Source: Escherichia coli (GTDB taxonomy: Bacteria; Pseudomonadota; Gammaproteobacteria; Enterobacterales; Enterobacteriaceae). Taken from it: DNA of 64,000 nucleotides. The notes under the pieces are model-generated. The model was given only the letters and a program-made list of their open reading frames with translations. It was not told where the DNA came from and ran no database searches. Where the stretch lies: NCBI RefSeq assembly GCF_044324875.1, contig NZ_CP172185.1; one strand, written 5' to 3'. Shown piece after piece: positions 42,201 to 44,847 of this stretch (its first letter is position 1; every line of letters starts with the position of its first letter). The position numbers and the translations under genes are program-made.

Positions 42201-42373
42201 TGTACAGCGCTGTCAGCAGCCGGCGCGGGCGCTGACATGACTGCAGCAAGGGACAGTGCGGCAGCCACGCCCGCACGCTTCCCCCGCGTGCGGGCCAGTT
42301 CAGAGGCCACCGCGAAGGTGCCCGTGACGTGATTCCATACCAGCCGGTAACTGGTGTTCAGATGTCGCTTCAT
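39254..42373 (-). pseudogene. flu: antigen 43 (Flu) self-associating autotransporter, interrupted by an in-frame TAG and cut off from its promoter by an IS
   Basis: ORFs 41501..42373 (290 aa; extended signal peptide MKRHLNTSYRLVWNHVTGTFAVASELAR) and 39254..41485 (743 aa; ends ...ATLNVTF) are in the same frame. Together they span 1039 codons with one TAG at 41503-41501. Confidence 0.9.
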
Positions 42374-42412
42374 TAGTAAGCGTACAGCGAGAGCCGTATT
42401 GACGGGGATGTG

Positions 42413-43951
42413 TTATTCAGCTGGCAGTGCTATGCGCCACGGAAGCAGTTCGCTGACCCGGTTGACCGGCCAGTCTGCTATGACGCCAAGCACATGGCGA
42501 AGGTAGCTTTCTGGATCCACGTCATTCAGTTTGCACGTCCCTATCAGGCTGTACAGTAGCGCTCCCCGCTCACCACCATGGCCAGAGCCGAAGAACAGGA
42601 AGTTTTTACGACCCAGACTTACCGCCCGCAGGGCATTTTCAGCGATGTTGTTGTCGATTTCCACCCAGCCATCGTTCGCATAGTACGTCAGTGCCGGCCA
42701 CTGGTTAAGTGCGTACGCGAACGCCTTCGCCAACTCTGAGTGTCGCGACAGGGTCTTCATCTTTTCACGCAACCAGCTTTCCAGGGATTTCAACAGCGGT
42801 TTCGTTTTTCGCTGACGTTCAGCAAGCCGCTGCTCTGCCGGCATTCCCCTTATATCCGCCTCTATGGCGTACAACTGACCGATCTGCTCCAGGGCTTCTT
42901 CCGTCAGTGCTGACGGGATGCGGACGTGCACATCGTGGATCTTTCGGCGGGCATGAGCCCAGCAGGCAGCTTCCGTTATCCCACCATTGCGATACAGCTC
43001 GTTGAACCCGGCGTACGCATCCGCTTGCAGCACACCGCTGAAGCAAGCAAGATGAGTCTGCGGATGGATGCCTTTTCTGTCCGGGCTGTAAGCGAACCAC
43101 ACTGCAGGTGCCAACGCTGACCCGGCATTGCGGTCATCACGAACATACGCCCACAACCGCCCGGTCTTCGTCTTCTTATTACCCGGCATCAGTACCTGGA
43201 CCGGGGTATCATCGGCATGGAGTTTGCCGTCAGTCATGACATAGCCATGAAGCGCCTCTTCCAGCGGAGACAGCAGCCGGCAGCATGCATCCACCCAGCC
43301 CGACAGCAGTGAACGGCTCAGCTCCACACCTTGCCGGCCGTATATTTCTGACTGGCGATACAGCGGGGTGTGCTCTGCATACTTCGAGGTCAGCACGCGG
43401 GCCAGCAGCCCCGGTCCGGCGATACCCCGCTCGATGGGCCGCGAAGGTGCAGGTGCCTGCACGATGGCATCGCACTGAGTACAGGCATGTTTTTCCCGTA
43501 CCGTCCGGATAACCCGGAAGGCGCTACGCATCAACTCCAGCTGTTCGGCGGTATCCTCGCCCAGATAGCTCAGTGAACCGCCGCAGTTCGGGCAGCACGG
43601 CGCCGCAGGCAACAGTCGCTTTTCGTCACGGGGTAGTGATTCAGGGAACGGCTTACGGATGCGGGTCTGACGCAACGGACGCTGTACTGCCGGGTCATAC
43701 ACCCTACCAGTCAGCGTATCGCTCTCTTTCTGAAGCCGGTTCAGATCGGCTTCCATTTGTGCGATACGGCGGGAGACTTTTTCGGAACGACTGCCGAAGT
43801 TCATCCGGCGGAGTTTATCCAGCTGCGCCTGCAGATGGTCTATTTCGCGCTCCCGGTTGCTCAGCTTTTCCTGCAGGGCGTGGATCAGCGCTTCCTGTTC
43901 GGCCAGGCGCTGTTTCAGCAGGAAGATGTCGTCAGAAGAGATGTCGTTCAT
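42413..43951 (-). CDS. tnpC: IS66-family transposase TnpC
   Basis: 512 aa with an N-terminal coiled coil/leucine zipper, a CxxC zinc motif (CPNCGG...CTQC) and a DDE region. Confidence 0.92.
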
Positions 43952-44000
43952 AAGCCCGTATTTTACCGGGCTTATTCTGTGACAACCAGGATAAAGAGAT

Positions 44001-44348
44001 TTACAGCATGGTCAGGGAGGTCAGCAGCCGCTTAGGCTGTCGCCAGTCGATACCTTCCAGCAGCATCGCCAGCTGCGCCTGTGTAAGGAACACTTTGCCA
44101 TCACGGGCTGACGGCCAGGCGAAGCGCCCACGCTCCAGCCGTTTGGTCAGGAGGCACAGTCCGTCACCGGTGGACCACAGCAGTTTAACCTGACTGCCGC
44201 TGCGGCCCCGGAAAATGAAAACATGGCCGGACATGGGATCGTCTTTCAGCGCCGTCTGTACTTTCGCAGCCAGGCCGTTGAAGCCATTTCTCATATCGGT
44301 GATACCGGCAACCAGCCAAATTTTGGTCCCGGAAGGTAAAGGGATCAT
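44001..44348 (-). CDS. tnpB: IS66 Orf2 (TnpB)
   Basis: 115 aa, [30 protein letters not shown].... ATGA overlap with tnpA. Confidence 0.92.
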
Positions 44349-44746
44349 CGCTTCAGTTCCTGTATCAGCAGAGTCAGGAGCTTTTCGCTGACATTGCCAT
44401 TGAAGCGGAGCGTCCCGTGCCGGAACGTTACCTCACAGCTGATACTGAGGGTTTCCGGGTCCTCTGCGAGCGATTCTGGCTGTTCGGCAGCTGCATCGAG
44501 AGTCACAGGAAGTAGCTGGGGGCTCTCTGAAGAAGGTAATAGCAGCTTTCCCTCGCGCCATTGTTGTCGCCATTTGAACAACAGATTGGCGTTAATGCCA
44601 TTTTCAAGAGCAAGTTTTGAGATGGATATCCCGGGTTCACAGGAGGCAGCAACGAGCTGCTGTTTAAATTCGGGAGGATAATTAGGGCAGCCTTTTCGCC
44701 TGCCGGGAGTCACATTTTTCTGCATATCTGACACTTTGGTTCCCAC
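44345..44746 (-). CDS. tnpA: IS66 Orf1 (TnpA, HTH protein)
   Basis: 133 aa from GTG 44746. An alternative start is ATG 44725 (MQKNVTPGRRKG...). Confidence 0.85.
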   Translation of the reverse strand: MGTKVSDMQKNVTPGRRKGCPNYPPEFKQQLVAASCEPGISISKLALENGINANLLFKWRQQWREGKLLLPSSESPQLLPVTLDAAAEQPESLAEDPETLSISCEVTFRHGTLRFNGNVSEKLLTLLIQELKR

Positions 44747-44847
44747 TACTTATTTGGTGGACACCACTTTGTCTAATTCGTCAGATTCTGACCAGACGGT
44801 TCAGGCTGTACGCTTACCTTCATTACATTCTCCCTAATCAATGATGT

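Follow-up and report, generated by a model that had tools for sequence, protein, structure and literature searches.

The window analysed here is a 64,000-nt stretch of Escherichia coli DNA, and all coordinates given below are positions in this window. On its minus strand it carries an allele of agn43/flu, the gene of the Ag43/Cah autotransporter adhesin, together with the agn43 leader and switch region. Between the leader and the open reading frame (ORF) of flu lies a 2442-bp insertion sequence (IS), assigned to ISEc8 of the IS66 family, whose target-site duplication spans the flu start codon. The genes tnpA, tnpB and tnpC of the element and flu itself are all encoded on the minus strand. The features of the locus are the following.

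39254-42373, minus strand: pseudogene of the Ag43/Cah autotransporter adhesin agn43/flu, with 1039 codon positions and a terminal stop
41501-41503, minus strand: in-frame TAG at flu codon 291; the ancestral codon is CAG (Gln)
42368-42375: target-site duplication, flu-side copy, CTTCATTA on the plus strand and TAATGAAG on the minus strand
42376-44817, minus strand: insertion sequence assigned to ISEc8 (IS66 family), 2442 bp, all three ORFs intact
42376-42397: 22-nt terminal inverted repeat next to tnpC, on the flu side
42413-43951, minus strand: tnpC, DDE transposase of 512 amino acids (aa), Pfam LZ_Tnp_IS66, zf-IS66, DDE_Tnp_IS66 and DDE_Tnp_IS66_C
44001-44348, minus strand: tnpB, 115 aa, Pfam TnpB_IS66 (E = 1.2e-38)
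44345-44746, minus strand: tnpA, 133 aa from a GTG, Pfam HTH_Tnp_1
44773-44823, minus strand: insertion-made 16-codon ORF MKVSVQPEPSGQNLTN*, ATG at 44823-44821 and TAG at 44775-44773
44796-44817: 22-nt terminal inverted repeat next to tnpA, on the side of the agn43 leader
44818-44825: target-site duplication, leader-side copy, CTTCATTA on the plus strand
44830-44834, minus strand: ribosome-binding site (RBS) with the Shine-Dalgarno (SD) sequence GGGAG
44845-45041, minus strand: agn43 leader RNA, Rfam RF00124 'IS102 RNA' (= IsrC), full length
44857-44885, minus strand: leader hairpin resembling an intrinsic terminator, 13 pairs and then TTTTTATTTA
45005-45039: three GATC (Dam) sites of the OxyR/Dam phase-variation switch, at 45005, 45018 and 45036, intact
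45045-45072, minus strand: sigma-70 promoter-like site TGCACA-16-TAGAAT, a consensus match only, bordering the GATC cluster on its upstream side

The insertion and its empty site

The duplication copy adjoining flu holds the flu ATG, at 42373-42371 on the minus strand. Read on that strand, the leader-side junction is GGGAGAATGTAATGAAG followed directly by GTAAGCG, and the flu-side junction is GCTGTACGCTTAC followed by TAATGAAGCGACAT (also written GCTGTACGCTTAC followed by TAATGAAGCGACATCTG). An 8-bp match at two fixed positions has a chance probability of 4^-8 (1.5e-5). The 22-nt terminal inverted repeats are 86% complementary, and their outer 13 nt (GTAAGCGTACAGC) are perfect at both ends. 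A preliminary description of this DNA had reported a 2442-bp element with these termini and 8-bp repeats and had placed the flu ATG inside the duplication; its boundaries were exact to the base. The duplicated ATG is the true start of agn43: in alignments it coincides with the annotated start codon of intact alleles (...AAGGAAAAGCTGATGAAACGACATCTG...) and with that of a 99.7%-identical uninterrupted allele.

The uninterrupted allele, a search for which in sister genomes had been proposed, was found in draft contigs, whereas the 5426 complete E. coli genomes contained none. In the latter the allele occurred at an identity of at least 99.9% in nine genomes, all nine of them with the IS, and the next-best allele was 84% identical at the DNA level. 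The uninterrupted form, of the GCA_044085695.1 type, was reached via the 90% protein cluster of the allele and the draft contigs belonging to it. A member of this cluster, P0122 (1039 aa), is identical at 1036 of 1039 positions to the protein of the IS-bearing allele, and in 13 draft contigs its gene follows the GTPase gene immediately, without an intervening IS. When the IS and one copy of the repeat were removed from the window, the remaining sequence aligned end to end and free of gaps with four such contigs (L019-L022), at 4386 of 4397 nt (99.75%), which indicates a simple transposition that duplicated TAATGAAG. A scan of one genome per GTDB species for the exact empty-site 32-mer gave 0 matches. 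The four uninterrupted contigs differ from the window inside the switch: at window position 45021 the middle Dam site is mutated (GATC to AATC) and at 45002, beside the ORF-proximal GATC, GATCGAC reads GATCGAT, and the phase switch of these copies may be altered.

The identification of the element as ISEc8, which the preliminary description had offered from its length, is supported by several lines of evidence. Its three consecutive ORFs, its imperfect inverted repeats starting with GTAAGCG and its 8-bp target duplication are those of an IS66-family member, GTAA ends being typical of the family, and the Pfam matches of the three proteins agree with this. The element DNA is 100% identical to copies named 'IS66-like element ISEc8 family' by the Prokaryotic Genome Annotation Pipeline (PGAP), including the copy in strain TUM1886. 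In addition, the ORF sizes of 133, 115 and 512 aa equal those listed for the ISEc8 ORFs L0013, L0014 and L0015 of E. coli O157:H7 EDL933 (PMC2762410). PGAP gives tnpA a length of 126 aa, from an ATG at 44725; tnpA and tnpB overlap by ATGA (44345-44348). In these comparisons the element itself showed no difference from ISEc8, its reference length and inverted repeats being supported indirectly, and the insertion site alone is particular.

ISEc8 is a common element. Of the 5426 complete E. coli genomes, 3352 had a copy covering at least 80% of the element, and the median number of places in a carrier was 4. All 14 independent copies inspected (13 besides that of the window) were exactly 2442 bp long, with the same termini and perfect 8-bp duplications. 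In the scan of one genome per species, an exact 30-nt ISEc8 end had one match, at positions 4463-4492 of Kluyvera georgiana ATCC 51603 (L029, NZ_LXEU01000055.1), so the element also occurs outside Escherichia.

A target preference of ISEc8 was considered as the cause of the start-codon insertion and rejected as an artefact of ascertainment. Six copies from the head of a BLAST list made with a flank-containing query had duplications resembling TTCATTA (CCTTCACA, GTTCCTTC, ATTCCTTT, TCATTAAT, ATTCATTA and TGTCATCC), a pattern that arose because the list was ranked by coverage of that query and thus favoured similar flanks. Six copies retrieved with the IS alone as query had the duplications CAACAACC, GTTGCTTT, TCAGAAAA, AATAAAGT, GATTCAGG and CCTAAGAC, and the copy in L003, picked irrespective of its flanks, had GGATAAAC. 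Among these seven copies chosen irrespective of flanks no consensus emerged, and any bias towards AT was mild. The start-codon position is best read as chance, perhaps aided by a mild preference for AT-rich octamers. The copies in AREA_499 and R1 were also examined as possible second insertions near agn43 and were discarded as unrelated, since ISEc8 there lies upstream of a GTPase gene and beside a different, intact agn43 allele.

The severed regulatory region and the flu reading frame

Upstream of the insertion the regulatory region of agn43 is complete. The leader matched RF00124 with 88 bits, against a gathering score of 46, over model positions 1-206; despite its name 'IS102 RNA', this family is the agn43 leader and not an insertion sequence. 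The layout of the agn43 switch is preserved, with three GATC sites downstream of the promoter-like site and then the leader with its terminator hairpin. Control of the adhesin ORF by this switch is nevertheless broken, as the 2442 bp of the IS stand between the switch and RBS on one side and flu on the other. Expression of flu has been reported to depend on IsrC antitermination (Wallecha et al. 2014, as cited in PMC5389530). In two IS-bearing strains the region itself varies: in CM2 the GATC at 45036 is lost (G to T), and MS 119-7 has a C to T change at 45004.

The native RBS now stands before the leader-side copy of the ATG. The preliminary description had predicted that it would initiate a 16-codon peptide reading into the IS; the ORF MKVSVQPEPSGQNLTN* was recovered at the leader-side junction, and its translation from the native ATG and SD into the IS end is probable from the sequence. 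On the other side, the absence of an SD before the ATG adjoining flu, also noted earlier, was borne out by the computed pairing with the anti-SD sequence, which amounted to -8.9 kcal/mol at the native site and to -1.7 kcal/mol for the 25 nt preceding the flu ATG. Of all 25-mers of the IS, 77% pair more strongly than this. The predicted fold of the region from -40 to +40 was more stable at the flu-side junction (-20.3 kcal/mol) than in the native context (-14.5 kcal/mol). Without an SD, efficient initiation at this ATG is not expected. The IS end held no promoter-like site on the minus strand at the threshold of the consensus scan.

No terminator-like site was predicted on the minus strand between tnpC and flu, and read-through transcription from the co-oriented IS genes is therefore possible, as the preliminary description had proposed. 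The TAA stop of tnpC and the flu ATG downstream of it share a frame and are separated by 39 nt, which comprise 13 sense codons (HIPVNTALAVRLL) and no stop. Across this stretch (42371-42415), read-through of the tnpC stop would give a TnpC-Ag43 fusion, which is probably meaningless.

The flu ORF has the architecture of the Ag43/Cah family: an ESPR signal peptide, AIDA-type repeats, an autochaperone and a C-terminal beta-barrel (Pfam ESPR, AIDA, AC_1, Pertactin and Autotransporter). Its product is 80-83% identical to proteins named autotransporter adhesin Ag43. The passenger and translocator are not encoded in one uninterrupted ORF, the TAG at codon 291 standing in the way; for this reason the ORF list shows flu as two pieces of 290 and 743 aa. 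Hence the window allele could yield at most a 290-aa N-terminal fragment that lacks the autochaperone and the beta-barrel. An alternative in-frame start exists at codon 36, where a GTG follows an SD-like GGGGGA (-8.6 kcal/mol) at a distance of about 11 nt; the signal peptide of its product would be without the charged N-region, and translation would end at codon 291 all the same. In the window, flu is dead whether or not translation starts. The preliminary description had treated initiation at 42373 as the open question: it was right about the missing SD, but this framing was incomplete, as it overlooked the nonsense codon. In TUM1886, where the DNA is identical, the PGAP annotation reads 'Ag43/Cah family autotransporter adhesin, internal stop', and the pseudogene label 'internal stop' recurs in six further genomes.

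Between flu and the DUF905 gene, at 38300-39250, all related genomes have just PGAP pseudogene fragments ('hypothetical protein', with internal stop or incomplete). These fragments are further decay of the same island module.

Order of events, spread and alternative explanations

A site-by-site comparison of 16 flu alleles placed the insertion before the nonsense mutation. Three haplotypes were found: CAG at codon 291 with GGC at codon 402 in the alleles without the IS (L019-L022); the IS together with CAG291 and GGC402 in LH50-c and in the assemblies L017 and L018; and the IS together with TAG291 and GGA402 in the window and eight complete genomes. The IS-bearing CAG haplotype keeps GGC402, and the reverse order would need two back-mutations; the IS therefore inserted before CAG changed to TAG at codon 291. 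The changes that followed the insertion in flu comprise one nonsense, four non-synonymous and one synonymous substitution, which is compatible with relaxed constraint, the numbers being too small for a test. Decay went further in other carriers. In CM2 and AR_0085 the IS and its leader-side junction are retained; the sequences at the other end differ between the two genomes and show no duplication, and these are two independent rearrangements beside the IS that removed flu. Further fragmentation was seen in flu in L040 and in tnpB and tnpC in L037, L039, L042 and L043. In LH50-c (L013, 3501-6620), PGAP calls the IS-severed agn43 an intact coding sequence (WP_112038121.1), because the ORF is complete and ORF-based annotation is blind to the loss of promoter and RBS.

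The same IS junctions occur in nine complete genomes and in the draft contig L017, which spans the locus. Hundreds of draft contigs hold this allele as well: the exact 290-aa product is indexed in 439 blocks of a public assembly collection, with ISEc8 directly upstream in 10 of the 10 contexts listed. The carriers came from chickens and humans in Japan, Switzerland, China, Ecuador and the USA. The locus sits on an island at tRNA-Ser (serX), beside ghrA and the csg operon. Comparison of window positions 13551-64000 with TUM1886 (L016) revealed 12 mismatches over about 30 kb of island (~0.03-0.04%; 99.97% identical) and about 190 mismatches over 16.5 kb of the adjacent core to the left of tRNA-Ser, from mdoH to ghrA (~1.2%). 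A near-identical island beside a divergent core indicates that the island with the dead allele moved between lineages, and suggests that the whole island, of more than 34 kb, was transferred horizontally or recombined after the inactivation of flu. Eight of the nine carrier genomes have 2-4 agn43-like places per record. MS 119-7 (NZ_CP146653.1) has no agn43-like place besides the interrupted copy, and this strain may be entirely Ag43-negative.

From these observations we consider it highly probable that one ISEc8 transposition onto the agn43 start codon abolished or nearly abolished expression of the gene, and that decay and spread with the island followed. A single transposition on the serX island duplicated TAATGAAG across the start codon of agn43/flu and put 2442 bp between the promoter, GATC sites, IsrC leader with its terminator and GGGAG on the one side and the flu ORF on the other. 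The native signals now lead solely into the 16-codon ORF and the IS end, and the flu ATG, placed behind the IS end with neither an SD nor a detectable promoter, would direct little or no synthesis of Ag43. The change of CAG to TAG at codon 291 then arose on the IS-bearing haplotype; in other carriers flu was deleted beside the IS or fragmented further, and the island has carried the dead allele into E. coli strains of differing background. The sequences show the anatomy, the empty site, the mutational order and the distribution; the loss of transcription and translation, the relaxed selection and whether that loss was neutral or selected are inferences.

Several points weigh against this account. 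We infer silencing by the IS alone from the sequence, and a weak outward promoter in the IS end could have escaped a simple consensus scan. There is no predicted terminator between tnpC and flu, and the flu ATG follows the tnpC stop by 39 nt in the same frame, so that some read-through transcription and some SD-independent or re-initiated translation of flu may be possible. The ORF is intact behind the IS in at least three assemblies, which may just reflect a recent insertion on that branch. Finally, with six changes in all, five of them non-synonymous (nonsense included) and one synonymous, the 5:1 ratio has no statistical meaning.

Among the alternatives, loss of this Ag43 copy may have been positively selected, for example through less autoaggregation or through removal of an immunogenic surface antigen; the IS allele would then be common by its own advantage and not by hitch-hiking on a successful island. 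The 439 index blocks of the IS-bearing TAG allele, as opposed to 13 contigs for the uninterrupted allele, fit this view, as do the renewed loss of flu through two independent deletions and the hits on agn43 by IS1 and by single-nucleotide polymorphisms in a laboratory evolution experiment (PMC5419217). However, how often an allele appears in databases depends on sampling and on how successful the island or lineage has been, the other agn43 paralogues found in most carriers may buffer the phenotype, and six substitutions are too few for any test of selection. We regard this explanation as unlikely, with some chance of being right.

The insertion could instead have rewired flu: co-transcribed with tnpABC and translated from its SD-less ATG by re-initiation or 70S scanning after the tnpC stop, the gene would be uncoupled from the Dam/OxyR switch and would give a 290-aa secreted fragment in the window and full-length Ag43 in alleles of the LH50-c type. 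The common orientation, the missing terminator, the in-frame tnpC stop close by and the intact ORF of LH50-c, L017 and L018 all speak in its favour. Yet the pairing of -1.7 kcal/mol at the flu ATG is poor, the predicted local fold pairs the start region, and transposase operons are generally expressed at a low level; the later nonsense mutation, the two independent deletions and the fragmentation argue that nothing was maintained. This makes rewiring quite improbable. There is likewise a slim chance that, in LH50-c-type alleles, Ag43 would be made by read-through from tnpABC and re-initiation, or that transcripts from the agn43 promoter that pass the leader terminator would drive tnpA-C. In the first case adhesin expression would be tied to transposase expression instead of to the Dam/OxyR switch; in the second, ISEc8 transposition would be phase-variable. 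The TAG at codon 291 makes both moot for Ag43 function in the window.

That the IS landed in a gene already dead, TAG291 having come first and the IS-bearing CAG alleles being revertants or recombinants, appears very improbable. IS elements do accumulate in pseudogenes, and TAG291 is present in eight of the nine IS-bearing complete genomes as well as in the window, but the IS-bearing CAG alleles share GGC402 with the uninterrupted allele while all TAG alleles have GGA, reversion would thus amount to two back-mutations, and no IS-free TAG291 allele was found, the IS being present in 10 of the 10 contexts listed for the 290-aa product. An assembly artefact, in which a multi-copy IS (median of 4 places per carrier genome) was misplaced by the assembler, has next to no likelihood, given identical junctions with the 8-bp duplication in nine independent complete genomes and further assemblies and a structure exactly as expected from the empty site.

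Under the preferred explanation, transposition followed by decay, this is a case of an established IS disabling an established gene by a familiar mechanism. The allele is old and widespread, and it is already public and annotated as a pseudogene; the residual curiosity is the LH50-c-type allele alone, in which the IS is present and the ORF intact. Virulence-gene or adhesin typing should treat this agn43 copy as non-functional, and the copy that PGAP calls intact in LH50-c is nonetheless cut off from its promoter and RBS. The alleles form a clean, datable series from intact allele to IS, nonsense mutation and deletion, which could serve as a marker of lineage or island, and they exemplify the horizontal spread of a pseudogenised allele on the serX island. 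Beyond annotation the importance of the case is small, and it opens no long-standing question.

Related systems and neighbouring elements

The Dam/OxyR phase switch and the IsrC leader of agn43 have been described by Haagmans & van der Woude 2000 and by Wallecha et al. 2014, cited in PMC5389530. Compared with agn43/flu of E. coli K-12, the window allele has the same order of ESPR, AIDA repeats, AC_1 and beta-barrel, the same upstream neighbour, a yeeP-like GTPase gene, and likewise three GATC sites downstream of a promoter-like site and a full-length IsrC leader. It differs in being a divergent allele, located on the serX island and not on the CP4-44 prophage, and in having an ORF that is severed from its switch signals and carries a nonsense codon.

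The agn43b gene (c1273) of uropathogenic E. coli CFT073, which is reported to be intact and functional and lies in PAI-serX, resembles the window gene in that both are Ag43 genes on an island adjoining tRNA-Ser/ghrA-csg. The same c1273 has been used as an agn43 reference (PMC3203889). Insertion of IS1 into agn43 was observed during experimental evolution (PMC5419217). In that case too the adhesin gene was knocked out by an insertion sequence; IS1 entered the alpha-domain in a laboratory event, whereas the window has ISEc8 at the start codon of a naturally circulating allele.

Two further insertion elements on the island are present in the window and absent from TUM1886. The first, of the IS21 family, occupies 34626-37262 just upstream of the island antirestriction gene, is flanked by CTTAAGTG on both sides and encodes an IstA-like protein of 548 aa (rve, Mu-transpos_C_2) and an IstB-like protein of 332 aa. 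The second is an IS2-like element of the IS3 family at 55531-56861 (1331 bp, 5-bp duplication CTGGA, ORFs of 136 and 301 aa), which interrupts a small 'acetyl-CoA carboxylase' (biotin carrier) gene of the island carboxylase cluster.

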